A stretch of DNA of 51,552 nt, filler included, from Sphacelaria rigidula (GCA_964200075.2; 3 parts of 3 records of this genome joined end to end with filler, not necessarily neighbours in it), one strand, 5' to 3'. Positions 4,764-48,761 are shown, counted from the first letter of the whole stretch. Notes: generated by a model from the sequence alone, not told the origin. Program-made: numbers and translations.

Positions 4764-4962
4764 TGTAATGCGTGAGAGGACTGTGTGCTTTGAGGATCGC
4801 GCCGTAGTTCAGAACACCTCAGGATCGACGTTTTTCATAACCAATCGGGGCAGTCCCTGGAGGTACGACGCCCCTAACCCTAACCCCAACACTAACCCTA
4901 ACCACAGGGATGTTCAAATTCTGATGCGGTCCTCTAAGCACGCGGTCCTTTTGCGCAGTACA
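4764..4962. mobile_element. MITE family A, copy 1, with internal telomere-like CCCTAA repeats
   Basis: TIR TGTAATGCGTGAGAGGAC..GTGCTT.GAGGA.CGC with reverse complement at 4924-4962; CCCTAACCCTAACCCCAACACTAACCCTAACC at 4872-4903. Confidence 0.8.
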
Positions 4963-5269: not shown

Positions 5270-7507
5270 CTCACCTCATTCACTTTATCCTCGGAGAATT
5301 TGGTGCTGATCTCGTCCGCCACTATCTTCAGGAAGCTCGGGTATCTTTCGCTCAACACGGCGAACGCTGACAGCTTATCTACCTTGTTGCCGTTCGCGCT
5401 CGGGGGATCGTCGTTGGTTGGGTCGCGGTCGACGATGTGGTATCTTATGGCGAGGACGACGAAGACCTTAGCACCAAAGTATTCCCATTCGCGATCCGTT
5501 CTTTTCCCCTGCATCAACGTAGACCGGACCTTGTGATAGAGTGCCTGGCAATGAATGAGCGCGAAGACGTGTGGTATATTGTTGATCGCTGCATGTGACA
5601 CAATAGTTGACCGGGGAGAGGCGTGACCGCTAACGTGTGTTGTGCAAGGGGCGGACGTGCCGTCATGGTTGCGCTGTCGTCACCGATGTGTTGTGAACTG
5701 TGTCTTTCCCGTGTTTATTCCCTGCATTTCAATTTACACCCTCGCGGCATCCTAAGCATTCGTGGTTGTAAGAGGGAGCGAGGGATCCCCGCGGCACCTC
5801 CTCGCGCACCGGCCGCATGCAACATATTGATTGACAAACAACACGTCGACGGTCGAGGTTTCCGAAACTTCCATCTTCAAGGTGAATGGAATCAATGTGA
5901 AGCGTCATATGACCTGTGGTTTAGCTCATCATGTTGCGGGTGGTATGGATTTTCCCAACGTTGACAACCCATCCGCCTCACCGACTGAAAACTCGTGGGC
6001 GAAAAGAATTTGACCGTGCCAGGCACGAACCGTTCTTTGTAGTACGCTCTTAGTGGCTTTATGGCCGGAAAAGTGTCGCTGAAGACGGCTGTCGCTGATG
6101 CGCAGAGCTTCTTGCGCGCGCTGGCGGCCACCGATGAGGGCAGGTTTTGTCGGATGATTGGGCCAGATACCCCGCGCTCCCTGTGCGGAGGTGCGTGCAG
6201 AAGAAGAGCAGGGTGTCGGAGTCCAGGTACATCATCAGCCAACAACTCAAAGCGTCAAGCCGACCTTCACTCGAAGGCGTCGTTCAGAGAGTTTCAGAAA
6301 AGCATTTTTTCAAATGTCGCCGGTGACGGTGTACCTTCCGCTATCAAATATTTTCCAGGGCGATTTCTTCAGAGGGAGAGGGTCATTGGCGCCACTGCAC
6401 TCTGAAAACCGTTGGTCCTGTTCAGAGTTTATGGCGGAATGAAAAATAACCACGCCCACCTTCACCACCACGGCCACGTCCACTCCGAAGTCGATACACC
6501 CTAACAAGCAGAGTGGGACACTCATTATACATCAAAACTGCCATACTCAACAAGGGGCCATTCACTAAGTAGAAAAGCTTAGCATCGCAATCAGAAGACC
6601 TCCCTGACGCCGGCTGCTGTTTGAAAGTGCTGCGTGCCGTGCTGTTTGTACAACTTGTAATGCGTGAGAGGACCGCGTGCTTAGAGGATCGCATCGGAAT
6701 TTGAACACCCTTATGCTTAGGGTTAGGGTTAGTGTTAGTGTTGGGGTTAGGGTCAGGGGCGTGGTATCTGCACGAACTGAGATAGGATAGAACGTCATTC
6801 GAAATGCCAGTGCTCTCAGGTTCCCGGCAGCTGACCTCGAAGCGGTTCGTCAGGGAAGCGGTGGCGATCCCTTTCTTTCGTCACTCTTCTTGTCGGCACC
6901 GGAGCACCCCTTTGTCCCTCGAGTTGGAGTGACAATACTTGAATATTGCTATTTTCATCAGCGACGTAATATTTCGCTGCCTAAAAGCGCCAGTGGGTTT
7001 GACTTGGTAGCCGGCATACTAGATGCGTTCGAGTACTGACGGGATAAAATATCATTCGAATTGCCAGTACCCTCAGGTCCCCAGCAGCTGACCTCTGTAC
7101 CATTCGTGAGAGGTGCGGTACCGATCGCCGTTTTGGTAACTCCTGTTGTCATCATCTCTGTTGTTTCGGACCAAAATCACGACAGCGAAGAACCCGTCCC
7201 CGATCGCAATTGTCATCGCCACGGTCGCAAACGACTCAGGTGTCCGGAAGGTCACACCCTGTGAAGTTCGTGTACTACCCCGATTCGGACGCGAGCCCGC
7301 AAGTTCATCCTTCAGCCAGATTCCCGAGAGCGCATGTTGTCGCCGCCGACTACCTCGCGGACCATAAGACCATTGCCGGTTACCGCGTTTCAGCTGTCGA
7401 CGTGGAAGCATGGCTGCAACTGCGTTCGCCCGGGGATCTACACCAAGTGTTTCCCACATCGCCTTACGCCCAACAGATGATAATCCCGCCCTCATCACAT
7501 CAACCAT
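5270..7507 (-). pseudogene. Degenerate minus-strand exons of unknown product, divergent from the integrase gene
   Basis: Protein-like segments at ~5275-5601 (ending at a GAG|GTGAGG donor), 5892-6400 and 6800-7507, with stops and frameshifts. A duplicated peptide EVSC(W/R).PE.TG.SND occurs at ~6795-6840 and ~7050-7095. Confidence 0.4.
6656..6770. mobile_element. MITE family A, copy 2 (truncated, one TIR)
   Basis: TGTAATGCGTGAGAGGACCGCGTGCTTAGAGGATCGCAT followed by TTAGGGTTAGGGTTAGTGTTAGTG. Confidence 0.75.
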
Positions 7508-7836
7508 TGACTAAGGCAAGCAACAAATGAGTACGCCCCCCCCTCATCACATCACGATCTGCCGGGTCTGGTGTACAACATACCTCTAGCCGGGGGAACG
7601 TTCGAAGCGCTCGAACCGGAACACGACGAATTCAAGCCACAAACACAATTGCCCGGAAGTCACGAAGACCCCGCCCGCTCCAAACGGGATCTCAACACAA
7701 CAGCCCGGCAGCACTCGCGGAAAAACAACGTCGACAGGCGGAGTTTACCCCGCGCTTCGGGCCGCAATACTTTGACGACACGGCAATCTTCTTACGCGAA
7801 CGACACTCAAATAGGCCCTCGTTTTTCAGAAATGAG

Positions 7837-10271
7837 GTGTACGATTTCTTGGATTCAGGTCTTCTGCCCCATCGTCTATCCATACGGTTGTTCGCCAAGA
7901 GGGGGCAATATCAACATTCGATACGAGACTTCAAGCTTCAGGCCCGAAAATTCTGGATGGTGAGCGAAGAGAAAGACACCAATGGGCGCCGGACACTATT
8001 TCGCACCGTGCGCCCAAGCAGGTCCGCCGAGGTGAAGACGTATCGACAGACTACATACGGACCTCGGGTCGTCCCCCCGAAGAGCGACATAGAAGATATC
8101 GTCGCGCAGGTCAGTCGGGTAAACACGCCACACATGGGTTGCGTGTCGCCCGTGTTCGCCGTCTAACGACAGTAGTAGAAAACAGAGCGCTGACAGGAAA
8201 GTATCCATATCTCTCGGTTGCACGGCGAATACTGACAGAAACACGCAAAAACGCACGCCGGAGAGCGATTGATGGAGATGGAGATTCGCAAGACGTACGA
8301 CATTGTCAGTGAGGTCCTCAGGCCGATTCTAAGGGCGTTGAGAAAGATGTGCGAGACCTGCGCCCTTCACCAGACTCTCCCCACGTCCACACCGGCCGCG
8401 TACATCGTGTCAAACTTCTAGGGGGAGCGTGTGCTGGTAGACTGCAAGACAGTATACGGTAGAGGGTACTTTGTTATAGCTGTGGACCATTTCACGACGT
8501 ACACGTGGACGAAGTTCGTCGAACGGGAGTTTGGTCGGCCGATAGCTGTATTCGTTGCTGACGTCGTTAGGGACGTTCGCCAGATTCGCAATAATAGGCC
8601 ACACATCGACCACGACACGACCGCGACGTCACCACCGGACCCTACGCTACACATCTCTACCGGTAAGGTGAGCGTCGCCTTGACGTCGCATCCACGTACC
8701 CATCCCACGGTCTGACTAGTAGTTCCCGTATGATCCCGGTAGAATGATGAGTCATGTCCCACGACATTGAGCAGATGTTCCTCTGGCGGAAAAATCCAAC
8801 ATGGTGTTACACCGCAGATGGCACGCATCCCACATGCTTCCAATGACGATTATAACCATGGCAACGCGCCCGCCGGGCCGACGTTCGGTACACTTGCACC
8901 AAATCACCCAGGAATTTCAAGAGATCCTCAACGCAGAGCGGGAAAGAGAGATGAAGACCCCGACCATATACCAGAGTGACAACGGCCACGAATTGAAAAA
9001 CCGGTATATGCGAAGTGAACTCAGCAACCTTGGGGTCCTGATGCGACACAGCAAGCCATACAACCCCCGTACCAACGGCAAGGCGGAAAACAGAGTGAAG
9101 GTTGTCGCCCAGAAATTTGCCGCCGAGATCAGGGCGTGGGACGACCTCTCGAAGGTGTCGGTGCACGACATCATCGCAGCCTTGGCCAGCGCGACGTCCA
9201 TTCTTAACTGGACACAGGGCTCGACGTCCACCTGTCGACCATTCGAGGCAAGTTGAGAGAATAGTCTCACATCGAACAGTCGACACCAATGCTGAGCGGA
9301 GATACTGACTCTCCACGCAAACGGTACCATCATGATGCATTATCACCTCCCGGCGTCACGTACATCCGCCGCACCAATCCTGCGCAGGCTGCATACCACT
9401 ACCAGGCTATCCTGACCACAGCAGAAAAGGACGGATCTGCGACAAGAAGAGGTGAAGCGATCGCCCCCACGCAGGCGGTCCTGATGACCAACAAAACCCG
9501 GGCGATTCAGGGCGTCAAAGCCCTCGCCGACCAACAACGACAGCTCAGGAAGGCAGAAAACTCGTCTGTAATTCGGCTACAGGTAATTGGCATATACTCA
9601 GTCGCAACGTTGCATTTTTTGCGGAAGTAGGAAGACCTCCGACATCAAAGTTGACGACATGGCCGCAGACCCTGTCGCACAGGGATCCGCATGCGAAGAT
9701 CGCACTCGCGAAGCGTCTGCCGATTAGTACCCACCACACACCCTCATCGCGAAGAAGCACGAGAGCACCGACAACCATAGTGTTTACAATCCGTCACGTG
9801 GTAATGCATGACAGCAGCGCGTCTGTAGAGGGCGGCGTCGTAGCTCAAAGCACATCAGGACCCATGTTTTTCAAGACCAATCCGGCCAGCACCTGCAGGG
9901 TCCAAGCCCCCGCCTCTAACCCCAACAGGAACCCTGACCTTAACCCTAACCATAAGAATGTTTGAATTCCCATGCGGCCCCCTAAGCACGCGATCCTCGT
10001 TCGCATTACCACGTGTACAATCCGAGAATCAACAGCAGTCCCTTCCGAACACTAGGGTGCTCCTTTTGACTATAGCGCCATGCTGCACTCCCAGGTGAAC
10101 GACGAGGTTTGGTTCTACGACCCGGCGGCGAAGTTGAAGAAGACGAAATTGAAGGGCACCATCCGGAACTTCACCCACAACAGAACCTACGCAGAGGTTC
10201 GCCACGGAAAATCCGGGTCGACCATCACAGTTGATGTTAGGCTACTCGTCCACACAGGTGTCTTCGAAGAG
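7837..10271 (+). pseudogene. Intron-containing gypsy-type DDE integrase/transposase (Ginger-like), inactivated
   Basis: Intron 8110-8238 (CAG|GTCAGT...ACTGACAG) joins DIEDIVAQ|KHAKTHAG...MCETC, an HHCC zinc finger. Then *GERVLVDC...YFVIAVDHFTTYTW (first D; in-frame TAG at 8419-21), TPTIYQSDNGHE (second D) and SKPYNPRTNGKAEN (E). Intron 9583-10094 joins RLQ|VNDEVWFYD, an SH3-like C-terminus. No RT, RNase H or LTR nearby. Confidence 0.85.
9800..10010. mobile_element. MITE family A, copy 3, inside an integrase intron
   Basis: GGTAATGC...GCATTACC termini, flanked by ACGT on both sides (or CACGTG if the termini are 1 bp shorter); degenerate CCCTAA repeats at 9915-9952. Confidence 0.75.
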
Positions 10272-11724: not shown

Positions 11725-12179
11725 TGTGATGCGTGAGAGGACCGCGTGCTTAGAGGACCGTATTTAAGTCCTAAACACCTCAGTACCCGGGAGTACCAAG
11801 CCACATGAGGGCCGTTTATGCAGCTGGAAGCCGTGCGTCCCGATCATCAATACGTTTCTGCCTTAGCTACCCGTGGCTCCATAAAGTGCACGGCCCAAAA
11901 CACCTCAGCACCTGTGATTAACGAGTCACAAAAGTAGTACGCGGGAGTACCAAGCCACGTTGGGGCCGTGTATGCAGCTGGTAGCTGTGCGTGCCGATCA
12001 TCAGTAGGTGCAATTCGTCTGCCTTTGCTACCCCTGGCTCGATAAAATGCGCGGCCCAGGTCGGGCCTAGGCGCGGTCCCGGCATCGACGACGCCCGCGC
12101 GGTCCTCCTGCCATGTCGGTCCTGGGGTGTTCGAATCCAGATGCGGTCCTCTAAGCACGCGGTCCTCTCACGCATTACA
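11725..12179. mobile_element. MITE family A, copy 4 (455 bp, different interior with an internal ~110-bp duplication)
   Basis: Near-perfect ~37-bp TIRs. GGGAGTACCAAGCCAC...GGCCCA is repeated at ~11789-11897 and ~11943-12058. Confidence 0.85.
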
Positions 12180-17119: not shown

Positions 17120-17219
17120 NNNNNNNNNNNNNNNNNNNNNNNNNNNNNNNNNNNNNNNNNNNNTTAATTAATTAANNNNNNNNNNNNNNNNNNNNNNNNN
17201 NNNNNNNNNNNNNNNNNNN
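17120..17219. other. Assembly gap with artificial six-frame-stop linker
   Basis: N run with TTAATTAATTAA at 17164-17175. Confidence 0.97.
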
Positions 17220-17337: not shown

Positions 17338-18133
17338 CAATGTTTTCGTGAAATTGAGAGTTGAAGATCCAGACATCTTTTTCCGACCAGCGTGACATCC
17401 ACCTTTTAAATTGTTACACGACACGTCGGTTACTAGCATTATAAGAGGCCCGTTGACCCTTACAGCAGTAGACCTGATGAAATGTTCGTACACGATGGTT
17501 TACAGGGATGACTACTCGATTTTAGAGTTGATAAAATTGAAAAAAAAAAGAAGATGGTTTGGGGCAGGTGAGCAGTGGACCCAGCTCGTCCAGAACGTGT
17601 TTTTGTCGTAATCGGAGCCTGCCGCGACGATTCGAAGTCTGCAAACGCACACTTTGCCTCGGGGAAACTATGCACCCTCCTCGCCCGAGGGTCTCGTGCG
17701 CCTTGGGTCGGGGTTAGTGTTAGTGTTAGTCTTTAACATTCAATGATGTTCCCCATCAACCATTATCTACTAGCATTTCTTCACGTCTTTTTCCGATAGA
17801 CCGCGAGAGTAGGTCATTTGGTGAATCGGCATCAATTTTCACTTGAAGAAAGTATGAGTGATCCAAATGGACTACCCCCACCGCGGCGGTCGCCCCGGTG
17901 GCTCAGTTGGTATAACCTCGGAATCTTCTGACGGTTGGGTCGTGGGTTCAAATCTCGGAGTGATCTGGGATTTTTCCTCACACCATGACCAACAGTAGAT
18001 ATAAGGGTCAACGGCCTCTTATTATGCTAGAAACCAACGTGTCGTGTAATAATTAAAAAGGTAGATGTCACGCTGGTCGGAAAAATATGTCACTCTCATT
18101 TGCATCTTCAACTCTCAATTTCACGAAACATTG
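17338..18133. mobile_element. Composite repeat: ~125-bp inverted arms enclosing a telomere-like segment, a piggyBac-like MITE and a SINE head
   Basis: 17338-17462 is the reverse complement of ~18002-18133. 17343-17998 matches 48762-49445. Confidence 0.75.
17892..17998 (+). mobile_element. tRNA-derived SINE, 3'-truncated
   Basis: A box TGGCTCAGTTGG and B box GGTTCAAATCTC; same family as the copies at 45190 and 49342. Confidence 0.75.
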
Positions 18134-18137
18134 TTAT

Positions 18138-18830
18138 TTACTGGCAATAAAGATGCTGCTGCTGCTGCTGCTGCTGCTGCTTCGTCTTCTCGTGCGGGAG
18201 GAGGTCCGCGTTTCAACCGTGCGACAATGCCCATGCACCTGGTGTGTATTTCCTCCTCCCGACTATATACCGATTATGATCTGTTGGCGTGCTGTTACCC
18301 TCATATTGTATCAGTATGCTACAACAGTTCAGTACGAGTACGTATCACTTTTTCCCCCCTGTATTGGACGCTGGCTTTATTCTTTCAACGCCATCACCAG
18401 CAGTAGCCACGCTTGCGAGACGCACCCGATGTGCACAGCTTGCGCAGGAAGATGCGCACAGCTTTATCTCCTAGCACTTAGCCTGGCGGGGAAGCATTGA
18501 CTTATGAGCGGGCAGTACGGAGCAGCGCTTTCCGACATGGTGGCTATCACGTGCAAGGTGCGTGGGCATTGTAGCACGATTGAAACGCAGACCGTCTCTC
18601 CCGCGAGGAAAAACGGCAGCAGTAGCGGCAGCAGCAGCAACAACAGCGGCAGCAGCGGCAGCAGCGGCAGCAGCAGCAGCAGTGTCGGCACTGGGTGATT
18701 TAGACACTCCCCCAGCCGCGCACATCTACTGGCAGTAAAGATGCTCCTGATACTGCTGCTGTTGCTTCTAATCCTTCTCGTGTGGAAGGCGGTCCGCGTT
18801 TCGATCTGCGACAGTACCCATACCCCCTTG
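18138..18830. repeat. Three copies (+,-,+) of a ~100-bp unit with a (CTG/CAG)n tract
   Basis: TACTGGCA.TAAAGATGCT(GCT)n..CTCG..GG..GGTC.GCGTTTC at ~18138-18242 and ~18727-18830; reverse complement at ~18554-18685. Confidence 0.7.
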
Positions 18831-20436: not shown

Positions 20437-20694
20437 TGTAGCCTCTTCCAGACGATCTGGACAAGAGGACCATCCACGAGGGGCTCCTCCAGTAGCACTG
20501 GCCTCGTGCTCGACAAGTCCTTTCTTCTAACTTGTTATTATTTCGGAGTGATCCTCTACAGCCCATATCAAGAGCTAAACAGCAAGGGGCCACACAGATG
20601 AGGGTCATCAATCCAGGATCCCCCGTTCCCTGCCACTGCTCCAATCATGCATGTGATTATACTGAAACCTACGGTTTGGAATCATTTGGCTACA
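20437..20694 (-). repeat. 3' LTR of element 1
   Basis: TGTAGCC...GGCTACA; about 6 substitutions relative to 25876-26133 (manual count). Confidence 0.95.
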
Positions 20695-20845
20695 ACCGCC
20701 CCAAAGCGAGTTCAAGACAAGCGAACGAGCTTGACAACCAACAAAACCAAGGCAAAATCGCATGCGCCAGATCACAAAGAAATATCATACTCCGACGATA
20801 ATTTACTGGTCAGCGCCCGAGTCAACCGCATTTTACGCAGTTCCT

Positions 20846-23327
20846 TCAGAACAAATTCAGGCGCAAAAGAATGAATCTTGCGAAAAGACTCCCCCATGTG
20901 CGTTCTTCAGCACCGAATCCTTCCCAATCGACCAAAACAATGGCCTCACCGTTGTCATCCTCAGCGACGTGTACCAAAGCATTTATCCGACATTCACCTT
21001 GAGCATACGAATGCTGAAATACATCTTTTTGTTCCGCAGTAATGTGCAACTGCGAGTCGGCACAGAAACGCGAACGAGCGACATGGGCCGAGTCCACGGC
21101 GTCAGAAACAATGTTCTGCACCGAATACACGTGAGCGTGATCGGCTCCGACCACTCGCCACGGACGTGTCCACGTGGACATCAACTTTGGCGTCACACCT
21201 TGCCTCGGAACACGGGTATACAATACGAAGTTGCCAATTAATTGCTGACTTGGGCAACGCAGCCTGGCCCTGAGCAAGCTTGCGTTTGGTTTCGTGAGAC
21301 ACCGCGACAGCAGCTTGCACTTCGTTACAAAATCGCACTTGCTCATCAACCACGCCTAGAACCTCGTCACGCAACGAATCAGCATCCATGACATCGACGT
21401 TCCACTCGCCGCCAGTGACAGAAGTAAGCGCGGAAAACGCTGTACGCGGCGCACGCCCAAATATCACAAAATACGGAGGGATACGGTAGCGTTCACCAAA
21501 ACAAGTATTCAACGCCCACTGAGGGGCTGGCAACATCAACCCATTCAGACACCGTCCGTCTCTGTTCCGACAAAATAGACCGCAACGCACGAATAACCTC
21601 TTTCACCATGCGTTCACAAGCACCATTCGACCAAGGGGTATACGAAACAGAAAATTTGTGTTGCACCTTGAGCGCATCGCTCAGCTGCGCGATCACTCGA
21701 TTTTTGAAGTGCGTGGCGGTATCACTAACCCAAACACGCGGCACTCCCAAATTCTTGCACCAATGGAGCAAGTGATTAGCCGTAACCTCGACGGTGCAAG
21801 CCTCGGTCGGCTCCAAGCAGACGAAATTGGACAAATCATCCATGATAACCAAACACACCGAAAACCATCCTCCTCAGGCAAACCATTAGCACCTTCAGGT
21901 CCGCTTCTTTCGACGTACAGAAAATCAAAGTGAATAACTTCACCTGGCGCAGTACCATGTACAGTATCGCCATACGGATGAGGTACAATCTCACCAGCAC
22001 GAGTGTCCACACAATGCAAACGCTGGCGAACGAAGTCGCGAACGTGGGAATCCATGTGAGGCCACACACAGTTTTCTTTCAAACGAAACAGAGTCGGCGC
22101 CACGCCATGGTGACCAGCCGACGGCATGTGAGTGCACACCATCAAGCGAGTTTGTAGAGCCCTATGATCTGACGGAATCCACAAACCATCACTACTGTCA
22201 ACACGCACGCGAAACAAACCATCGTCAGCCAAAGCAGCTTGACCGAAAGTCGTAGGAAAAGAATAAACACCGTCGCCGACTGTTTTGCGCTGCGCGATAC
22301 AAATAACATGTAACGAGGGCAGATTTCATCGGCATCACACGGGCTGTACACGGCAACAAAACGAACAGGCACGGTAGGAACCTTCACCAAGCGAGACAAC
22401 AAATCTCCCCAAAAAATGCGCTCTCCAGGAATGTGTTCACTGACATACCGATATTGTTGTTGGGCCAACTCCCGTATGTCTCTTTGGCCTGACATCACCC
22501 CCGGAGACTGTTCCACTTGCGCGTTCACCACCTGATAGTCGCTGACCAAACGGAATGTGTCCCTCTTCGGCACCGCCATCACCGGACTCGACCACATAGC
22601 CTGTATGTTCCTCACCTGTCAAACCAAACGCCACCAAAAGTGCGATGCATGAGGCAAACCACCCGGTCTTCACCCGATCGTAGCATCGGGGCTCGGCCTT
22701 CACACCCGTTGCCTGTAACTTGAACTGAACCCTCATGGGCTCTACGCGCGCTGGCGAATCACCACGCGGCGCGCGACGAAATGTATTCACGCGACGAGCC
22801 AAGAAATTACGCAGACAATGTGCGCCATCGGTGCTCAGGCCCTTCTGCTCGGCCTGCCGCACGCTATCCTCAAGCGCACGTTCTTTGGCACCTCCTTCCT
22901 CTGCTGGGTCCATGAACATGTCGGATCCCCGATCGACCAAGCGCTCCACCGCTTCGTCCGCAGGAGCTTCCTCCTCATTGGCGCTCTAACATGGCCGTAT
23001 GGATACGATCACACGCCTTGCCGCAAGGCAACCGGGGTTTTCCACGCCGGTTTGCACCGGCACAGCACGCGGATGTAACTTCTTCAACGCCAGCAGATAC
23101 AAGTCATTCCCGAGCTCCTTCATAGTCGCCATCCCAAATAGAACCACGTTGTCCCTACCGGGCGTGGCAGTGAAATTAATGGGCTGTAACTCCACAGCCC
23201 CCCACGGCGTACGCACGCTGACAGTAATCGGCACCGTTTTGTGTGTAACCGTCACGGGAGCACCCGTGGTGGTCTGTGCCGTTTGCGGTCCGTTTACGAA
23301 CGGAATCTGAAGCTGAGCGCCGCCCAA
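20846..23327 (-). pseudogene. pol: pol remnant: protease C-terminal part, RT start, RNase H end, integrase, chromodomain
   Basis: WSSPVMAVPK..FRLVSDY; EHIPGE..WGDLLSR; H..GHHG..C zinc finger; IHFDFLY; VWVSDTATHF; YTPWSNGACERM; VLVDWEGFGAEERTW (chromodomain). Many frameshifts. Confidence 0.9.
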
Positions 23328-23335
23328 CTGCGAAG

Positions 23336-23963
23336 TGTGACGGTTTAAGAGACAACCAACTAGACTAGTAACCAGTCAGCGCTGACTGGTCAGTAGTCTA
23401 GTTGGTTATATCTGAAACCGTCACAAAAGTTGGTCGTGGGGATTGATCCCCGTCACTTCCACTCCGAGGAGGGTGACTCCCCTCGCCAGTCTAGTTGGTT
23501 GTCTCTTAAACCGTCACAAAAGTTAGTCGTGGGGATTTGATCCCCGTGGGGGTTTGATCCCCGTCACTTTCACTCCGAGGAGGGCGACTCCCCTTGCCAG
23601 CGTTCTATCGACTGCCATCAGGATATCTAGTGTTGTCACTCTCACCGTATCCTAGAGTTACTCGTCTCCCCCACTCGTTCCCAGAGTGTGTGCACTGAGG
23701 TCCCTAGCATTACTCTCCAAACATAGCCACCAGGCTATACCCCACCCTTTTCCTTTGGGCCAATTATTTACTGAGGTTTTCTCTCCTTGGGGCCAGTTGT
23801 TTTAGAGGTTTTCTCTCCTCTTTTTTCTTCAACGAAAGTGCGTCCGACGGGAATCGAATCAGCGACTAACTTTTGTGACGGTTTAAGAGACGACCAACTA
23901 GACTACTGACAAGTCAGCGCTGACTGGTAAGTAGTCTAGCTGGTTGTCTCTCAAACCATCACA
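23336..23963. mobile_element. 628-bp non-coding insertion with 90-bp palindromic termini and a 4-bp TSD (GAAG)
   Basis: 23336-23425 and 23874-23963 are each self-complementary (TGTGACGG...CAGC|GCTG...CCGTCACA). GAAG at 23332-35 and 23964-67. It interrupts the gypsy protease region. Confidence 0.9.
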
Positions 23964-23976
23964 GAAGACATCTGTT

Positions 23977-25215
23977 CTAGCAACCCCACACCGATCGACG
24001 TGAGTGCGGATCCAGATCCACGGGGGCTATGAACGAACCTACAGAACCAGGCAAGGTTAAATCTGCGCGTAAGCATTCAGCCTTGCGATTGACAGGTACC
24101 ACGCCTGCCGAAGAACCCTGTTCTGTACCAAGAGTCACCTGACGCCAGGGCTGCCCTTCAGCATTTGGCATCGATAGCTGCGAATCGTCGGTCCAACCAG
24201 ACCAAGTCTCCGAATATGCAGGCGGCGCTGTTACAGTCGTCGCAGCAGTAGGGAATGCACCAGATACGGATCCTACCTGACCGAGGGGTTGCGAGCTATT
24301 CGCTCCAGCACTCCCCACCGAAGTATTTGCATTTCCCACGTACACTATCCGCCCCGCTACAGACGAGCCATAAGATCCAGAGTCACCACCTGATGACGTA
24401 GTGAAAGAAACAGCAGTGGAGGAACCACCATCCGCCGCCGATTGCTTGCTACCGCGGCCGCCGCGCCCGCGTCCCTGATTGGCACGGCCCCGTCCACCGT
24501 GACGACCGCCCCGAGATCCTGATGAATCTCGCGCATTGCCCTGTGCAGCGCCTTGAGCGCGAGGCTTGGGGAAGTCCTTGATCATGTGTCCGGTGTCGCC
24601 GCAGTTGTAACACGCGCGAGTGGACGACGCTCGCGAAGAGGGCTGCTGTTTCTGTTTCTGTTGCTGTTTGCGGCGCATACCATCTGCACTTGTTGCCGAA
24701 TCACGCCGGCTATTTGCTTCAATGAACTTCCACTGGTTGGTTGCCTCAAATATTGTTTTGAACACCACCGTCGGGTTCTTGTTCCAGCCGTCAACATACG
24801 TTAGTACACTTCTAACATACGCCTTGAATTCCTGGGGCGAAATCCCGTCCACCAAAGCTATTAAAACCGACTCGGCCGGGCGTGGCAGCCAACTCCTGTC
24901 CTCCGCACAGTACATGGCTTGCACCGTTAGGTTTTCTGAGAAAAACCTTTCCATAGCTGAACTGACCATCATCGCGCGGTCCTTGACAGATTTCCCACCG
25001 CTGTGTGGCATAATAAGAACTTTACGCAGGTCTGCTGCAGCCCGCGCAGCGTCATACTTTCCGCCAGTTGTGGTATACCCGGCGTGCTGCTTCACAGCAT
25101 CAGACAATTCATCGGGGGTCATAGCCCGACCGTCCTTGTACATATCTTCGAAACACCGGTGAATATAGGTAGGAATAAGTTGACTTTCATAGAAAGCCTC
25201 ATGCACCGGATGCAT
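23977..25215 (-). CDS. gag: gag with zinc knuckle, running into the protease start (disrupted)
   Basis: 412-aa ORF with CYNCGDTGHMIKDF (CCHC with the last C lost), a Gly/Arg-rich tract and a degenerate protease motif VDLDPHS. Confidence 0.85.
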   Translation of the reverse strand: MHPVHEAFYESQLIPTYIHRCFEDMYKDGRAMTPDELSDAVKQHAGYTTTGGKYDAARAAADLRKVLIMPHSGGKSVKDRAMMVSSAMERFFSENLTVQAMYCAEDRSWLPRPAESVLIALVDGISPQEFKAYVRSVLTYVDGWNKNPTVVFKTIFEATNQWKFIEANSRRDSATSADGMRRKQQQKQKQQPSSRASSTRACYNCGDTGHMIKDFPKPRAQGAAQGNARDSSGSRGGRHGGRGRANQGRGRGGRGSKQSAADGGSSTAVSFTTSSGGDSGSYGSSVAGRIVYVGNANTSVGSAGANSSQPLGQVGSVSGAFPTAATTVTAPPAYSETWSGWTDDSQLSMPNAEGQPWRQVTLGTEQGSSAGVVPVNRKAECLRADLTLPGSVGSFIAPVDLDPHSRRSVWGC

Positions 25216-25875
25216 TGTCGCGGGAAGTTGTAGGCCTGCCGTGGCCAGTTGAGACCAGATATCATTTATGTAATTAATTCACCCATTTATGCCCACTCTC
25301 ACACGCATAACACACAACTGCTGAAAACACCACTGAATCAGAACTGACACACAACTGGATCAAGTGGGGGCAGGAAATCGATCAAACAAAATCACACGTC
25401 ATGATCCCGTATTTTCGGCACACGAAAAAGGCGTGTGCCCCCAGTAGATTTGTACTGCAAGCACTAGATCGGGTATACCTCAAATAACCTGAAGCGTAAG
25501 TATAATCGATTAGACCTATCCTCACCCTCTCATGCCTCACAATTCCCTGTGAGTTCGCGAGATTCAAACGCTGTATGTATTCAAGATATGTGATGCTTCC
25601 TCTGTCCACACTTCGCCATACTCAGACGGTTCCAGTGGTTCACCCAACACTAGCGGCGCTGCCGCCGCTTGAGCCATGTCGTCTATGCTTCAAACACTTC
25701 ACTGAGAGACTCTCACTTGACTTGTGCGTCCTCCAGCTCACGAAGCGTTCCCCAGTGCTGTGCGCTCCAAGTTGGTCTCGTCCTGTCTGCGTGCTAAACT
25801 GGCTCTCAGCTGTAGCCTACTCTCTCCTCAGCCAAACTCCTCTAACAGAGTGCCAGAAGAAGAATATCTAGATAT

Positions 25876-26133
25876 TGTAGCCTCTTCCAGACGATCTGGA
25901 CAAGAGGACCATCCACGAGGGACTCCTCCAGTAACACTGGCCTCGTGCTCGACAAGTCCTTTCTTTTAACTTGTTATTATTGCGGAGTGATCCTCTACAG
26001 CCCACATCAAGAGCTAAACAGCAAGGGGCCACACAGATGAGGGTCATCAATCCAGGATCCCCCGTTCCCTGCCACTGCTCCAATCATGCATGTGATTATA
26101 CTGAAACCTACGGTTTGGAATCATTTGTCTACA
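25876..26133 (-). repeat. 5' LTR of element 1
   Basis: Direct repeat of 20437-20694. Confidence 0.95.
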
Positions 26134-27995: not shown

Positions 27996-28419
27996 ATGGT
28001 CAAGTATAGACAGTACAGTAACAACAGTAGTATACAGTCAGTCAAGACGGCTATAGCGACTACTGTTGTGATCTGTGACGCCAGCCAGAAGAAGAAATGG
28101 TGGATCATTGCTGTTGAGGGACTCCCCAGTCCCACTGGCCTCAGTTTCAGTTGTCAGCTTTTACAACATCTCATTATCCAGAGTGCCCTCGACAGCCTCC
28201 TAGACATGCCAGGCATCATCCCCGTGTCCCCGGCCATTATTCAGATCACCACTACCAACGGTCATTATCCAGATCACCACTACCAACTCAACGTAACGGC
28301 GTAATTTCGTCACAGCACCCCCAAAGCGCGTCGGACGAAAATCGAGCAACAACCTTGACATGAAAAACGCCAAAACGATGAGCACGTCACAACCGAACAA
28401 CAAACTCACTCGTAATGCG

Positions 28420-31400
28420 AGTCTGCATAAAAACGCAAACGATCCAAAACAATGTTCTAGATCTCAAACACGTGCGGGTGATGAGCACCAACCACTCTCC
28501 ATGGACCAGTCCACGTCGCCATCAAATTGGGCGTAAGGCACGCGTGCATACAAGACATAGCCGCCTACCTCAAAATTTGGCAGTCCCAGTCCCGACGAGG
28601 ACCCCTTACGTCTACGCGCACGTTCAGCGGCTACACGCTCCTGCACTTGAACGTGGTAACGTTCCTGTAAGTCCAAGACTCCTCGCAATGTACGCTTAAT
28701 TTGATCATCATCCAAGACATCAATTCCCCTGCCTACAAAGACGCCAACACCGCGAAAGACGTCCGAGGAGCACGACCAAACATCACGTGGTACGGCGTAC
28801 TATCATAACGACGACGATACACTGTATTGAGCGCCCATTGCACCGCAGGCAACATGTCCACCCACTCGGAAACAGCTGTACGCTGCTCGAGAAGAATAGA
28901 GCGAAGAGCACGAACTGCTTTCTCAACCATGCGTTCGCACGTGCCGGCAGACCACGGAGAATACGCTATACCGCAAACTGGTGATTAACGTGCAAAGCTT
29001 CTCGCAATCGGACTAAGGTCGCATTCTTGAAATGCGTGGCGGTATCACCCACCCACACACGCGGCACCCCCAAAGTTTTGTACCAATCTAGCAAAGATGC
29101 AGCAGTCGATTCAGCAGTACACACTGCTACTGGTTCCGGAGACACGAAGTTGCTCAAATCATCCATGCCTACCAAAATGTATCGAAACCCAGCATTCTTC
29201 GACAAACCTTGGGAAGCTAGCGGGCCACTCTCGCCCACGTACAAGAAGTCAAAATGAAGACTTCATTCGGCATGGTCTCATTGACCGTTTCACCGAGTGG
29301 GCGCGGAACCCCCTCGAGTCAGCACAGTGAAGATACTGCCGGGAAAGTTCGCGCACATGAGCTTCTATCCCCTGCCAAACACAAAACTCTTGTAAGCGCA
29401 CCGGCATCGCGGCCACACCACGATGCCCCGCGTCGCGCATGTGAGCGCAAATCATCAGACGTACCTGCAACTGCTTGTTAAAACTCGGAATCCACAAAAC
29501 GTTTCGGCCATACACAAGCACACAAAACAGACCTTCATTGTCCAAGATAGCAGTACCAACGTTTGACTCGAAAGATCGGTCCCAAGGTCTTTTCGTTGCG
29601 CTTGGCGGACAACAGATTTGGACGGCATCGAGCCATCAGGTTCACACGGACCATACACAGCCACAGCGCGCACAGGCAAAGCCGGAATATTCACCCAACG
29701 CCAAAGCAAGTCACCCCACGCGTTACGGTCACCCGAAATATGGCAAATCGAGTAACGATACTGGCCACGAACAGCTTTCCAACCCTCCAAACGTTGTGCC
29801 AACGCCTTCGACACAGGCGTAACGCACGCTTCCGTGCTAAAAATATACACGAGATTTGGGTGATCCATGAAAATGTGCACGGCATCCCACGAAAGATGCT
29901 CCAAACGACGAAAAGTGCTCACAATAGCAAAACTTTCCTTGTCAATTATGGCCCAACACAACTGCGAACCCTTGAAACTACCACTAAGGAAAGCCAGCGG
30001 TTCATGCATCATATCGAGGCGTCGTTGCATTTCAACTTTAGGTACCTGCGTGACAAAACTACCCCAATGGCACTTAGATGCATCCGGAAACATCAACATC
30101 TGAAAATCAGGACGAGGATGGAACAGCGTCACCACATGAGCCACCAGATCCTTCGCTGCCGCCCACGCCTGCAGCCTGCCCTCCGTCCACGATGCTAGCG
30201 GAATAGCCCGGTTTTTTCCAAATGCTTCGTCCGCCTCGCAGCACCCGCCATGAGTTCTTCGAGGAAAAACGCGAGGGAGCTACGATTTCTTCCATACGCG
30301 GCAACAAGGTACGCAGCCAAATCATGACCTGCAGGAATTGCATGAGTTGCGCCGCATGTCAGACAAGCCTTGCAATCTGACAGGGTCATGAGATACGCGT
30401 CCGTGCGAGTACACTTTCCCACACGACACGAGTTCACCAGCGAAAAAAGTATACTTGTGCGCAGTCGCAAAGAAACGAACACCCTCTAAACGAGCCAAGA
30501 TGGCATCAAGCGTGTCTAAAAGTTCGTCTTCCGTGTCCGCGAAAAAAAACCCATCGTCCACCCATATCTTGCATTTGAAGCCGACGAGAAGTTCTGTCAT
30601 GATACCTTAAGAATATGCCGTGGCATTCAGGACACCTTGCGGCACCCGCGTCGGGATGAATAAGCCAAACGGAGTTGTGATTGTGAAAATTTCCGGCGCC
30701 TCCTCCGCCAACGAAATCTGCCAGTAACCTTGGAGGAGGCCCAACTTGCCAGAAAAATGAGCACTAAACAAATCACGCATGTCCGACTCTTGGTTGGGCA
30801 TCACACGTGACGACTTCTCAACCTGCTCATTCACGGCCTTGTAGTCGCTTACCAGGCGAAACGAGTCCTTCTTCGGAACCGCCATAGCCGGACTGGACCA
30901 CACTGCCTGCAAGTTCCGGAACACCAAGCCGAGCGCCAAAAGGGTCGCCATGCACGACGCCAACCAACTCGACTTCACCGGATCGTACCGCCGCGGCTTC
31001 GTCTTCACCGCGGATGCCCCAGGTTTTAGCTGAACACGCATGGACTTCATGCGCGCAGGGGGATCACCCTAGAGCCCCCGACGAAACGCGTTGACGCGGC
31101 GATGAAAGATGCCGCGCAGGTACTCCGCTTTTGAGACGCCCAGGCCTTTCGCAACAGCATCCGCTACGCTCTCCTCCACCGCGACTTTTCGAGCGGACTC
31201 CTCTTCCGCCGGATCCATGAACATATCCGGACCGCGCTCCACGAAGCGTTCCACTGCCTCATCTCGCTTCTCGTTCACCTGCCCCCCAGCCTCCTGAAAA
31301 GCATCCACGGACAAGCTCACGCGACGACTGCCCAAAATGATGGGCGCCTCCGAGCGCGGACCAGGCGAAGACATACGCGTCTTCATGGAGTACCACAACC

Positions 31401-32019
31401 GCGCATACGGGTCAGCTCCAAGATCCTGAAGCGTCGGCAACCCCAGAAGAATGACGCCATCCGACCCCGGCATGATCGTAAACGAGATTGGAGGCAACGG
31501 CGCCGGTCCCCAGGAAGTAGTGCAAGTCAACTGCAGCGGAACAGTACGCTCCGTGACGGAAGTATGCTGACTCGACGCGGTGACGGCCTGCCGCGCCCCG
31601 ATCGAAAATGGGATGCGCAGCGGCACACCCGGGAGAAGACGCTCCAACATCTCTACAATCTGCATCGACAAACTCGTGAAGTGGGCGCCACGATCTAATA
31701 CAGCCCAAATCGCAATGGCTCCACGCTCCCATTGATTTGGAAGACACAGCTCTGCAGAAACGTATTTGTCCGCAAACTCCACTGGCACCTCATCCGCTGA
31801 TCGATGCGCCGCTAATCCCATTTGACGCCATGGCTGCACAAGCTGCGCAGGCGAAGACGCCCCTGAAAGTTCAAACGGCACCGCCGGCGGGTACGACCCC
31901 CAGCCAGCAGACCAATAACTTGGCGAACCTCCGACCAGCGCATCAGCAGGCGTCGCGCCTGGCGCTGCTGCCGATGTCGCCACCGGCACCACCACCGACG
32001 CCGGCGGAGTGTTCGACAC
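28420..32019 (-). pseudogene. pol: pol of element 2 (protease, RT, RNase H, integrase), frameshifted; chromodomain absent
   Basis: WAVLDRGA; FRLVSDYKAVN..GYWQI..RVPQGVLNA; KIWVDDG; MFPDASKCHWG; YILVGMDDLSNF; VWVGDTATHF. Confidence 0.9.
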
Positions 32020-33000
32020 TGTAGAAGTCGGTCCACCTGCACCACGCGTTGCGGCGCAGCAGCACCTACGGCGGTGCCAGATCCAGAACCAGAACCGTGC
32101 TGACGCTGCTGCCCCTGCTGCTGCTGCTGAGGACTCGACTGCGACCCTTTACCACCGGCGGATCCGCCGCCACCACCACCCCGATTACCTCGTCCTTTGC
32201 CCTTGTGCTGACGATGCTGATGGCGCGCGGCATGGTACTGGCCAGAGTCTCCACCGGAAGACTTTGGGCGATCGCGCGCGTATGGGCCGACCTGGCTACA
32301 TCGGCGGCAGGTGATAGTCGGGGCCCGGCCGGCTGATTTCGAGCCGTGGTGGCGCAAAGACTTTGACGTGGAGGTGGACGACTGGCCGAACACCTGTATC
32401 TTTCGCCAACCTTGGCCTCGGCCACGACGGTGTCCATTACCAGGTAAGGGTCGGCATTCCAGTTTGTTTAGTGCTGCAACTTTACAAGCACGGCTTGCAT
32501 ATTTTTTTCCGGCGCCAGCCCCTCCACCAGAGCGTTGGTGATTGCTGTAGTCGGGCCGGGAATGAACTCACCCTCGGGGAACGATATACAAGTTCCACGT
32601 TCGGATTTTCACAGAAGTATTTCTCCAGATTGGACAGGATCGGCTCCACCCGCTCTAGCATCGTCTTTCCCCGAGACTTCATGGCGACAGCTTCCACCAC
32701 GGCCGCGGACGCTTGGGCCAACTTCACCTCGGCGTCCGCCGCATGCCCAGCATGCTTTTTGATCGCCGCAACCAATTGCGGTGGGGGGATTATGCTCTCA
32801 TCATGTTCCACACGAGCAAACACTCGCTGTACATGCGTCGGCACTGGTTGAGCCATCGACACTACCTGATCTCGCACGGCACCCCCACACGCTTCCTGTA
32901 CTCCAAGTACTTGGTGTAGAAAGTGCGATATGCACTCTCGAAGTACCTATCCCCGTATTGGGGAGGTTGCCACTCTTCCTGCATAACCGCTGGCGTCACG
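31812..33000 (-). pseudogene. gag: gag of element 2, frameshifted
   Basis: Fragments similar to gag of element 1 (AIKKHAG, LEKYFCENP); degenerate knuckle CRRCSQVGPYARDRP. Confidence 0.75.
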
Positions 33001-34337
33001 GTGGACCCAGCACGCGGGCCGGTTGCCATAACAGCAGCCGGCTACCTGCGAACCTTTCGCAGGCCAGCGGACCGTCGCGAATTGTACACTTTACCCTTGC
33101 TTCGTCGCCGCACCACACGGTCGTAGGAGCCTCAAAACTCCCGCTGCGCGCAGCTTCAGCAAGCCTCCAGTCTGGATCAATCACAGGCCAACCGCCTTTC
33201 TGCTGATCACTTCAGCTTGAACCCCCTCCACGCCTCCGTGGTGAATCAGGTTGTCCCCAGCGACCAGGCTCTTCCGCCGAAATTCTTCCAGCAGGTTCCG
33301 CTAGGTACTAGCTCTAGCACTAATATCGGTATGGTGACGCCAGCCAGAAGAACTGGTGGATCACTGCTATTAAGGGACTCCCCAGTCTCACTGGCCTCAG
33401 TTTCAGTTGTCAGCCTTTCAACATCTCATTATCCGGAGTGCCCTCGCAGGCACAGCCTCCTAGACACGCCAGGGCATCATCCCCGTGTCCCCGGTCATTA
33501 TCCATATCATCACTACCAACGGTCATTATCCAGATCACCACTACCAACTCAACGTAACGACGTCATTTCGTCACAGATCTTCAAACGTGATGAGCGCATC
33601 CCACCATATACCATTCGGCATGTGGCCCCGTCCTCTCTTAGTTTGGACGTTGGAGGCTTTACCACCTTGGTATATTCGGGGTATCTGCCTCTCGGATAGT
33701 CGTCCTGTACCGCGAGGTTTTCCTCCGAGGCCGCCTGTGTAGAACAAACGTTTTACCTGCTTGCCGAGGTCAAGTTGCCCTTTTCGCAGCACAGTGCAAA
33801 ACAAGGTCGAACCGTCGCGTGTACCAAAAATAGAAAACTGGACGCAAACTCTGATTTTGCCCTAAATCGTAGACGGAACAAGCTACGAATGTAACCAAAG
33901 TCTGACAATATGTCCACTGAGCCAGCACATAGTCGCGATCATGTACTAAGCTCGTCTGCGAGAACTTCTACTCATGTTTGTGTCTTGCACGAGGACGGCT
34001 GCTGTCCGGGCACCCAACGTTATTCCGGTATTTTTCATATTCATTTTTACCTATCGTCCATACCCATCCACGCGATTTATACTGGAATGAGTGTATAATG
34101 ACCGCATCTGCAGTGCCCGAGCTTCCCGTACACGTTTATTTTGAAGTAAGTATACTACCGCCCCGCGTCTAAATTTCATCACGTATGTATACAAGGTGAT
34201 ATTTAACCCTGTGCACCGAACAGCACGGAATTCTATTTTGTAGCTGAAAGGCGACATCACCCTCAGACAATACAGTGTTTTCGTGAGATTGAGAGTAGAT
34301 GATACGATTGAGAGTGAAAAGCGGTCAATCAGTGAAT

Positions 34338-34437
34338 NNNNNNNNNNNNNNNNNNNNNNNNNNNNNNNNNNNNNNNNNNNNTTAATTAATTAANNNNNNN
34401 NNNNNNNNNNNNNNNNNNNNNNNNNNNNNNNNNNNNN
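34338..34437. other. Assembly gap with artificial linker
   Basis: N run with TTAATTAATTAA at 34382-34393. Confidence 0.97.
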
Positions 34438-39300: not shown

Positions 39301-42300
39301 CAATGATGCGGGTAAATCTAAACACGGGAAAGTACGTGCAGAAGAGACTCGTTACGGTCACCCAGGCGCAAGAACCCGGAACAAAAGCAGGAAGAAAAGG
39401 TTGAAGCGGCGAAACGATGCGGACACGGGGAAGCGCAGCGCTCGAGATCGACGGTGTCGGCAAGACTTGTCCATCACCAGGTCAGACCGAACAGGATTCA
39501 GGGGGCGCAGACAACGCCGCAACAGAGTGGTCACGAGCGACACGGACAACGAAGACGATGGTTCCACCGTGGATACCATCGAGGCGAAAAACAATGATGG
39601 CGCGGGCCTCGGTGTGCTCAAGCGACCAAAAATTGGTAAATGCATCGACATAACCTCTAGCTCGTGTGAGGACTCCGCTAACAATCCCAGAAATTCTCCA
39701 CCATCACGAGTTTTAAAGGTACGGCGGCCACCCCGCGCAGACAGTGATGCTGCCCTAGACACTGATGCTGGCATAAAGGCTCCAAGCAAGTTAGTGGCAG
39801 CTGGAGAATCAAATGGAGGTGGAAGGGAAAGAAGAAGGACTGGCGAATTGGCGAAAGTGAACGCGGCAAACATGGTCGGTGACGTGCTGTCTATGCCGGT
39901 ATCCAAAACGTGGGCGGATGCGTCACCACCACAGGTGGAAGAGTCTGATTCGGTCAGGAGACACTCATGCTCGAGATCGGATACCACAGGCATCGCCGCG
40001 GATGGAGAGCCTGCTCCAAGCAGCCCACGATCTCCCCGGACAGAGATACAATCGTGGGATGCAAATCGACCGTGGGAAGCAGCCGCGGAGGTTGGGAGTG
40101 ACAACCCTGGCGAGGCAACCGGAGTTGGGGACAGTGCGGTGACGCCTGCTCGAGCGAAGGCTGTGTCGACAACGAGGCACCCCGACACGAATGTCGCAGC
40201 GGGAGGGGATGCTGAGAGTGTGGAGAAACGGGGGATGGGGTCGAGCAGCCATGATGACCACAGGATAGGAAAAAAAGCCAGAAACGGTGCTGTCAGCTGT
40301 TCTGCCGAAAAATCTAAGTACGTTCAGGCTCAGCAGTTGGTGGGATTTGGTTGAGGAGGGAGAACCATGATCGATTCCGCTCAGCACCTGTACGACTGTG
40401 TTGTGACCTTCGCTCGCTACCTGGTCACCCAAGCGTGTGTTATTTTCTTGATTGTGCACTCCTTTAATCGGATTACTTGCTATGTTTGTATTTCCCCCTT
40501 TCCGCCGTCTCGCTCCCCAGATGCTCGCGCCCCGGCATGATGACTAGATTATGCTGGTGGGAAATTCATCAGTGTGCGTTACTTGCTCTCTTGCCTCTTT
40601 CATCTCTCGCTCGTGCCCTTGCTTTCGAAATACCCATCCAACAGCGTCGCAGAGTACGTCGAGTTGCCGCGGGAAGTGGGCTTGCAAACATCTTGGAGGT
40701 GAGTTTTTGCAAGAAAACGTGCGACGTATGCACATGGGCGGAACAGTGGTGCATTGTTTTCGCTGCGAAAGGGTGACACGTTGGACGCTGTTTTGGTCAG
40801 CTGCTCTGTTAATTGCTGTGATGCTCGTGGCTCATTACAGATTCGGGTACGCTCTTCCTCCTACGTTCGTTTCCCATCGCTGGCTGTGTGTCATCCAACG
40901 TCCATCGTGGGTATCAGGTTATCGACCAATCTTGGAAACGCTAATGCCCCTTCTCATGTGGAGACGATGGGGCTCACCCCGCTCACGGCTGAGCCGGGTT
41001 CGCGCATAGCCAAACGGATAGAATCTGGATACGTGGCATCTTTCCCGCCGAATGCATTTACGCCAACTGCACGAAAAAGCATAACTCGTCCGTCATCTGG
41101 CGCAAAAGCTGCGAAGAAGCAACGGAGACCGAAAAATAGTTCAGCTTCAGCAGCGGCTTCTGGCGAGCTGTCTTCAAGGACAGCGGCGGCCACGAAGCGT
41201 GGGCAGCAAATTACATCAGCTCCGGCGGAGGCTTCTCGCACACCTCGTCCCAGTCTACCGCCGGGAAAACACGGAGATGTGTCAGCTACTCCTATCGACA
41301 ATTCAGTAAATGGACCAAGAAAAATTGATCTCCCCATGCGGAAGGGGAATTTGGAGTCCACACCTTCGTATTCACCACGTGTCGACACTAAAATTTGGTG
41401 GCCAAATAAGCTATTTACCTCTGACCAACCTCCGGATGGACGTTATCTCCCTTCTCTACCTTCCGCGGTCCCCCTCCGGTCAGCCCTCAAGGGCGGGAGG
41501 CAAGCGGCCCTCGCGCAACCACCTACTACGGAAAATCGGCCCTTGGCCGCCTGTACAGACACAACACCAGCCCATGGGCGTGTGTACAACCTACACCATA
41601 TCTTGGGTGATAATTATGGAGACACTGCCGAAGCCACGGCGCCCCGAGTGGAAACCACAACGAGTAGTATGTTATGCCCCGTAGGATCGGACGATCCTTC
41701 ACGAGAGAATAGTGTACCAGCTGTGTCAGGCTCGCCTCTTGGTCGTGCTGCAATGTCAACATCAGAAAGCGGAGAAACGTGTGTGCCTTCGTGCGGTCCT
41801 GCTGTGATGGCGAGCGGAAAGGTGTCCGTTACTGGGGCAGCTTCTGGCGACCACTGCACACATGCCGATGGAGATGGTGCAACAAGCAATGGCGATGCTG
41901 TCGCGCAGAACGATGAAGTGTCGAGCGAGAAACGTCGAGCGTCAGGAACGGCAGAGAAACCAGGTGACAGCTCTCCGGATCGTAGCTCACGAAAGGCCTA
42001 TAGTGGGCTCGGTGGCGTGAGCGTTACATCTACCAAAACGTTTCCACAAAGAGACATCGTACCTTTGCGTGACCACCTTGCTCAAATGCGAAACCGTGCG
42101 GCGGCTCAAAATGCTAGCGGTGCCGAGGCTAGCGGGCAGCAAGCCATGTCACGGTGGATGCATGCGAAGAATGATGATAGCTTGAGTCCAGGAGATGCGG
42201 GAAATGGTGACTATGCTGGAAATCAAGCTAACGCATCTTCATCTGCTTCGAGGCTAAGTGTTCCCATTTCGCTTGATGAACACGTTCAAGTTGCATCCAC

Positions 42301-48745: not shown

Positions 48746-48761
48746 ACATTGACAACAACGC

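Follow-up and report, generated by a model that had tools for sequence, protein, structure and literature searches.

A 628-bp non-coding mini-element with palindromic ends in a gypsy-type retroelement of Sphacelaria rigidula and its possible kinship with integrase-type TIR transposons

The window, that is, the whole stretch of Sphacelaria rigidula DNA analyzed here (GCA_964200075.2; 51,552 nucleotides, filler included), is made of three contigs placed end to end with artificial linkers, and adjacency across these linkers is not real. It is repeat-rich, with a G+C content of about 52%, and ARAGORN found no tRNA gene in it. The middle contig bears a non-coding mini-element of 628 bp (23336-23963), which lies within a gypsy-type LTR retroelement, hereafter the host element. 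The linkers, the two gypsy-type elements and the parts of the mini-element are as follows.

17120-17219 and 34338-34437: artificial linkers, with two 44-N runs around TTAATTAATTAA at each
20437-26133, minus strand: host LTR retroelement (gypsy-type), LTRs at 20437-20694 and 25876-26133
About 28074-33575, minus strand: gypsy element 2, LTR ends TGTGACG/CGTCACA, 4-bp TSD GATC on both flanks
23332-23335, no strand: left TSD copy GAAG, from the sequence and the empty-site joint
23336-23425, plus strand: left terminal palindrome, outer arm 23336-23380 and inner arm 23381-23425
23426-23487, plus strand: left subterminal unit 1, consisting of AAAGTTGGTCG, then the 16-nt mini-palindrome GGGGATTGATCCCCGT (23438-23453), then GTCACTTCC...CTCGCC
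23488-23598, plus strand: tandem duplicate of the inner-arm end and subterminal unit, with a partial arm, AAAGTTAGTCG and a 17-nt motif
23599-23845, plus strand: non-coding interior, holding a 33-nt tandem repeat in 2.1 copies (23751-23819)
23846-23873, minus strand: right subterminal unit, made up of the mini-palindrome motif in diverged form and then CGACTAACTTT, from an alignment of the three inward extensions
23874-23963, plus strand: right terminal palindrome, inner arm 23874-23918 and outer arm 23919-23963
23964-23967, no strand: right TSD copy GAAG, from the sequence and the empty-site joint

The two LTRs of the host element are 258 nt long, are 97.7% identical and read TGTAGCC...GGCTACA. 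A gag zinc knuckle was located within 23980-25278 and an integrase within 21496-22325, and the closest named relative of the host gag came from a brown alga, with 51% identity. No RT or RNase H domain was detected between gag and integrase (22326-23979), an interval in which only about 1 kb of the host element is left once the mini-element is removed. Contigs from diverged paralogues matched both flanks of the insertion site, indicating that the arrangement there is shared with other host copies.

Both ends of the mini-element are palindromes centred on CAGC/GCTG (the slash marks the centre). The arms of the left one are 45 nt long and 89% complementary, with a spacer of 0 nt, and the right one was scored as 51-nt arms at 86%, four flanking bases being counted in. 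Folded as single-stranded DNA, the left palindrome reached -34.5 kcal/mol (z -11.0) and the right one -29.2 kcal/mol (z -8.7), and none of 200 shuffles equalled either value. The terminal 45 bp are present four times in the mini-element, with a fifth, partial copy at 23488-23518. When these five arms were compared with their majority sequence, the left palindrome arms carried 2 and 3 private differences and the right ones 2 and 4; overall, 11 of 211 positions differed, each difference was confined to one arm, and the majority consensus was a perfect palindrome. The terminal 18-mer had five matches at up to 3 mismatches, against 0.04 expected, a number that none of 100 shuffles attained. The outermost bases are TGTGACG at the left and CATCACA at the right. 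Taken alone, either palindrome forms a full TGTG...CACA unit in which the terminal motif occurs twice, once facing outward and once facing inward, in agreement with the proposal of the initial annotation that each terminus offers two att sites. The other traits listed there, namely palindromic ends with this centre, TG..CA ends, a 4-bp TSD and the lack of an ORF, were likewise all recovered from the sequence, the longest stop-to-stop ORF wholly inside the mini-element being 53 aa.

The two ends had also been described as both direct and inverted repeats. As direct repeats they match over 94 nt (88%), and this match stops at the palindrome plus 4 bases, whereas the inverted repeat reaches beyond the palindromes, a continuation absent from the initial annotation, over 101 nt at 89% or about 120 nt at 86% depending on which of two comparisons is used. 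Weaker inverted similarity extends some tens of bases further inward. The inverted repeat (about 120 nt per end, more with the weak extension) makes up roughly 40% or more of the mini-element. Since the direct repeat ends so early and the inverted one goes further, the mini-element is built as a TIR element. The inverted half of the description thus stands, and the ends are direct only through being palindromes, their non-palindromic extension being inverted.

Contigs from four public runs (X6, X7, X1 and X8) were placed over 22336-24963 at a likeness of at least 80%. An empty-site joint from 23331 to 23964, which skips 632 bases and at which four letters fit either side, was found in 15, 17, 11 and 11 contigs of X6, X7, X1 and X8, respectively, besides a few near-variants. 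One such contig of 311 nt runs through 23161-23331 and continues with 23964-24096 at about 86% identity; its approximately 14% differences from the window assign it to a diverged paralogue of the host. Because the paralogues lack exactly the 628 bp and one GAAG, the 4-bp TSD is established, and the mini-element inserted as a single unit, the TSD resting on one copy. These results bear out its description as a discrete mobile element. They also rule out two independent 90-bp MITE insertions, which the initial annotation had named as a refutation of its proposal: the empty sites lack the whole 628 bp, and the flanks of the two palindromes (GAAG/AAAG and CTTT/GAAG) show that the inner ones are inverted copies and not direct duplications.

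The mini-element belongs to a multicopy family which is more abundant than the host family. In X6, the summed contig depth, which is not a copy number, was 0.52-1.32 million in 23480-23919 and 0.03-0.14 million in the flanks (22600-23303). The interior stood at 5-10 times the depth of the flanks, again a depth and not a copy number, and the other three runs agreed. In each run, some 95-117 contigs covered interior positions such as 23859. Nearly all the run depth differed from the window at nine listed interior positions, so the copy in the window carries private mutations. No second copy was found in the window. The run contigs break at the palindromes, and depth and loose ends at the outer termini are uninformative on the neighbours of other copies. 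Co-variation of the arms, considered from a loose end at 23925 (20 contigs, X8), was rejected as ambiguous, as contigs of a palindrome fit either strand.

Inward of the palindromes, the mini-element carries an ordered set of short repeats. As the initial annotation had noticed, the 11-nt motif AAAGTTRGTCG lies inward of every palindrome, and it was also found after the third, partial arm. It has the form AAAGTTGGTCG after the left palindrome and the form AAAGTTAGTCG after the partial arm and, on the other strand, after the right palindrome. The partial arm (23488-23518) is 31 nt long and is the exact complement of 23336-23366; its presence is explained by a 93-nt tandem duplication (23395-23487 and 23488-23598). 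The repeat matches of the duplicate comprise two direct ones at 92% and one inverted at 100%. Unit 1 has one copy of the 16-17-nt mini-palindrome (GGGGATTTGATCCCCG) and unit 2 has 2.2 copies, the 17-nt motif there having a period of 17 (23528-23564); the right end has a single, diverged copy. Unit 1 belongs to the inverted repeat shared with the right end, and its own fold is not stable (z -0.5). Other copies of the mini-element carry a fuller mirror image at their right end, as observed from opposite-strand joints between 23545/6 and 23865 in the run contigs. Subterminal short repeats are found in many DNA transposons.

This architecture could also have arisen in two steps. A palindromic 90-bp micro-MITE, made of two 45-bp TIRs with no sequence between them, would have inserted at mirror sites in both TIRs of an older TIR element of 450 bp, after which the outermost micro-MITE ends would have mobilized the whole unit, which amplified. 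Such a composite (macro)transposon would account for the fact that each palindrome alone is a TGTG...CACA unit with its ends correctly oriented, for the mirror-image inner flanks AAAG and CTTT, of which AAAG resembles the outer TSD GAAG, and for the interior having inverted ends of its own, AAAGTTRGTCG.... It requires, however, two independent insertions at exactly symmetrical sites, and no solo 90-bp palindrome was seen elsewhere in the window. Moreover, the bins of highest depth include the junction between the inner arm and AAAGTTAGTCG, and the internal 93-nt tandem duplication copied this junction, which indicates that it is old and fixed in the family. A composite origin is accordingly held to be improbable.

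The possibility of a retroelement was considered next to the DNA-type readings. In a TRIM-like retroelement, the 90-bp palindromes would serve as direct LTRs, the element would be copied through RNA, and a gypsy integrase would insert it. The palindromes do double as direct repeats, the TG..CA ends and the 4-bp TSD are as in the gypsy elements of the window, and a TGG lies 5 nt past the left palindrome. However, this TGG is confined to one of the three arm ends, TAG standing at the other two, no reading of the bases downstream of it gave the complement of a tRNA 3' end, and the spacing is unfit for a T-arm plus acceptor; no plausible PBS was found at the arm ends. A polypurine tract is absent before the right palindrome, where the bases preceding 23874 are mixed and mirror the left subterminus, so that the sequence beside both palindromes is mirror-symmetric and not of the PBS...PPT kind. 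No tRNA-like or ribozyme match was obtained either, in a window that ARAGORN left free of tRNA genes: the Rfam scan at E<=1 returned only a spurious 19-nt viral pseudoknot match. TRIMs resemble the mini-element in their small size, lack of coding sequence, TG..CA ends, terminal repeats of about 100 bp and TSD of 4-5 bp; the mini-element differs in that no PBS or PPT was found, in repeats that are direct only as palindromes, and in its inverted flanking subterminal sequence. Taken together, these features make a TRIM-like element very improbable. Of the TRIM/MITE hybrid proposed by the initial annotation, the MITE part is retained through the TIR build, and the TRIM part is not supported, no plausible PBS, purine tract or tRNA-like match having been found.

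Two related candidates were rejected. A tRNA-derived or SINE-like reading of the GGGGATTTGATCCCC motif met neither an Rfam match nor an ARAGORN tRNA in the window, and a retrozyme or ribozyme reading found no hammerhead match in the Rfam scan. The ORFs touching the mini-element had no match in Pfam. A peptide search with the ORF that runs through the arm and junction gave two candidates, neither of them significant. When the terminal 18-mer was compared with public collections, seven metagenome, two bacterial genome and no viral loci were returned, all of them 18-21 bp matches at the level of chance.

The mini-element was compared with gypsy element 2, whose LTR ends the initial annotation had likened to its terminal 7 bp. 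The likeness was confirmed: gypsy element 2 starts with TGTGACG, its LTRs end with CGTCACA at 28308 and 33569, the fourth LTR end is mutated to TGGTGACG, and the GATC duplication was found. The 7 terminal bases common to both elements are only suggestive of a relation, and this 7-mer is present at six further places in the window.

These data raise the possibility that the mini-element is a solo LTR of a gypsy-type family, with unusually long inverted ends, whose internal part was lost by LTR-LTR recombination. The TG...CA ends, the 4-bp TSD, the length of 628 bp, the lack of an ORF, the high copy number and the nesting in another gypsy element would all suit a solo LTR, as would the terminal bases and TSD length shared with gypsy element 2. 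In the curated Ectocarpus library (PMC12477816), the Gypsy families all have 4-bp TSDs and LTRs of 231-636 bp, a range that includes the mini-element, and every family of the TG..CA type with a 4-bp TSD is a gypsy LTR, which makes this explanation serious on priors. Against it, about 120 nt are inverted at each end, including the two 90-bp palindromes, while the terminal inverted repeats of the two verified LTR pairs in the window are of 7 nt only. The window also shows no second copy, partner LTR, internal region, or adjoining PBS or PPT. Finally, the small TG...CA elements with long TIRs at 4764-4962 and 11725-12179 derive from an integrase-encoding TIR element and not from an LTR element. 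A solo LTR is considered unlikely, though it is the chief rival to the favoured explanation and less improbable than the composite and TRIM-like origins.

The TIR family to which these small elements belong has three members in the window, with ends TGTRATGCGTGAGAGG... (TGTRATG).

6646-10020, plus strand: TIR-bounded element of about 3.4 kb, ends TGTAATG...CATTACCA, 134-nt arms at 77%
4764-4962: small derivative, 199 bp, non-coding
11725-12179: small derivative, 455 bp, non-coding, with 39-nt TIRs at 95%

The 455-bp derivative contains two internal direct repeats of roughly 150 bp each, and the 3.4-kb element has telomere-like (CCCTAA)n subterminal repeats. In the latter, a stand-alone HHCC+DDE integrase gene was also recognized (8236-8712 and 8909-9253), decayed by six stops and a frame change. 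Frame 1 of 7531-8712, in which the six stops lie, holds H-x3-H-x31-C-x2-C and the first catalytic Asp; the ORF at 8771-9253 holds the second Asp and, 36 residues on, the Glu. The 363-aa relative P0007, in which Pfam recognized rve only, aligned in two frames, at 48% over 8284-8697 and at 49% over 8909-9247. Solved retroviral integrase cores matched at E 7e-5, and beyond the small family the next relatives were copia Pol, IS481 transposase and gypsy Pol. The 3.4-kb element region has 52 ORFs of at least 45 aa; in the 37 of them that were compared, no likeness to RT, RNase H, protease or gag was found at E<=1. These sequence features indicate that the genome has, or had, TIR transposons with a stand-alone HHCC+DDE integrase and short derivatives, which is a Ginger-like architecture.

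None of the three copies of this second TIR family had a clear 4-bp TSD. TGTACAA is present on both flanks of the 3.4-kb copy, 2 nt outside its ends, and could be a 7-bp TSD or an extension of the TIR. When the terminal 40 nt were aligned with MAFFT across all TG..CA elements, no convincing likeness extended past the first 5-7 bases, and the TIRs of the family match those of the mini-element in TGTGAYG only. The 3.4-kb element shows that the class exists in the genome and is not the partner of the mini-element.

The explanation that we favour, with restrained confidence, is that the mini-element is a high-copy TIR element of the non-autonomous, MITE-like kind, mobilized by a Ginger-like DDE integrase or transposase of the retroviral type. 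The class of enzyme and movement as DNA are both our inference; an enzyme of the integrase type, as the initial annotation had supposed, agrees with the TGTGA...TCACA ends and the 4-bp TSD. Each TIR of about 120 bp consists of an outer 90 bp formed by two head-to-head copies of the 45-bp terminus, then AAAGTTRGTCG, then one or two of the mini-palindromes. The enzyme, acting in trans and presumably encoded elsewhere by a Ginger-like DNA transposon, would bind the repeated terminal and subterminal motifs and join the CA-3' ends to a target cut with a 4-bp stagger. The 628 bp are one copy of the family, which was inserted in a single step into the gypsy-type retroelement, duplicating GAAG. The terminal palindrome would give each end an outward and an inward recognition copy and could fold into a hairpin or cruciform.

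In the work on Ginger elements by Bao, Kapitonov & Jurka (2010, PMC2836005), Ginger1 and Ginger2 have TGTNR...CA ends, TIRs of about 40-270 bp and a 4-bp TSD, and TGTNR ends with a 4-bp TSD are given as a signature common to Ginger elements and gypsy LTRs; non-autonomous copies with only the ends in common are also reported there. The mini-element is alike in its TGTGA...TCACA ends, its TIR of at least 101 nt, its TSD length and its presumed integrase-related transposase. It differs in its target: Ginger1 inserts at CCGG/CCGT and Ginger2 at the AT-rich RTATAY (PMC2836005), and GAAG in a GC-rich context, as seen in the one copy examined, fits neither preference. It differs also in its partner, as no Ginger transposase with the ends of the mini-element was found. 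No autonomous element with these termini is present in the window, and the collection scans gave only chance matches. Target and missing partner both count against a Ginger-like mover, as do the differing TIRs of the second TIR family, the lack of a clear 4-bp TSD in its copies, and the curated Ectocarpus library.

Like MITEs in general, the mini-element is shorter than 800 bp and has no ORF, long TIRs, a TSD, subterminal short repeats and a high copy number. Unlike them, it has TIRs that each begin with a 90-bp palindrome, and its TSD and ends are of the integrase type and not of the usual Tc1/mariner or PIF types. Foldback-type elements have long inverted ends made of sub-repeats and a strong hairpin potential, as does the mini-element, which differs in that each end is a hairpin of its own, with a unique interior between them and an integrase-type TSD and ends. 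A foldback-like unit of 267 bp is present elsewhere in the window (3495-3761), with 99-nt arms that are 91% complementary and 69 nt apart.

Among brown-algal elements, the Gypsy solo LTRs (PMC12477816) are similar to the mini-element in their TG..CA ends, 4-bp TSD, length range and nesting; the mini-element stands apart through its inverted ends of about 120 bp, compared with 7 nt in the LTRs verified in the window, and through having neither a partner LTR nor an internal region. The 502-bp non-autonomous Ectocarpus family DNA5-N1_Ec32 bears the curators' note 'possible Ginger?' in the same source. It is, as described there, a small non-coding element with TGT...ACA-type ends and a short TSD which the curators left unassigned; unlike the mini-element, it has a 9-bp imperfect TIR and a 5-bp TSD, with no palindromic ends noted. 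Sola-1 and Sola-2, which have a 4-bp TSD in Ectocarpus, were rejected as relatives, their termini being AACCG and GGCGG and not TGTGA (PMC12477816). The curated library of PMC12477816 lists no Ginger family, and its curation notes mention palindromes solely for the subtermini of an EnSpm family. PMC2836005 contains neither 'palindrom' nor 'hairpin' and mentions no stramenopiles, 'alga' appearing only in the title of one red-alga reference; 'palindrom' and 'hairpin' are likewise absent from the GingerRoot paper. Within the literature searched, no description of an integrase-type element with palindromic termini was found; a similar consensus may exist in Repbase or in the Ectocarpus FASTA supplements.

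The palindromes may be a historical accident, caused by fold-back repair or by one 90-bp micro-MITE per end, or they may be part of the mechanism. In the latter case, each end of an integrase-type element would be folded back in an intermediate of its movement or replication; a single-stranded or nicked copy would still offer the integrase a duplex TGTG/CACA end, and in each cycle one arm could be re-templated from the other. We regard such a functional role as a speculative idea with little probability. If true, it would amount to hairpin-ended transposition, which is not described for integrase-related (Ginger/LTR-type) elements, and it would link the TIR and LTR architectures.

If the Ginger-like reading holds, an integrase-type TIR mini-element is abundant in brown algae or in close relatives of theirs. 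Elements of this sort straddle the LTR/TIR classification, and annotation pipelines may wrongly assign them to solo LTRs, TRIMs or unknown repeats. Hairpins with perfect 45-bp stems would also serve as strong substrates for the production of small RNAs and as fragile sites in replication.

Several further features were observed in the window. A TIR-bounded element of about 785 bp lies at 17344-18128, each TIR comprising about 107 nt in two blocks, and the third contig holds another copy at about 48756-49449 (84% identity over 697 nt). This element contains a stretch that resembles a tRNA T-arm, and ARAGORN called no tRNA in it. On the plus strand, 40703-44068 is an open frame of 1122 codons for a low-complexity Ser/Ala/Pro-rich protein with an Arg/Ser/Asp-rich C-terminus. 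It matches no Pfam family, and a comparison with 5.8 billion clusters gave a single match, 99% identical. The frame is probably a gene of the host, encoding a disordered protein of RS-domain-like character. Finally, at 18154-18682, microsatellite blocks of (CTG)n and (CAG)n-like sequence stand in inverted orientation, separated by about 430-480 nt.
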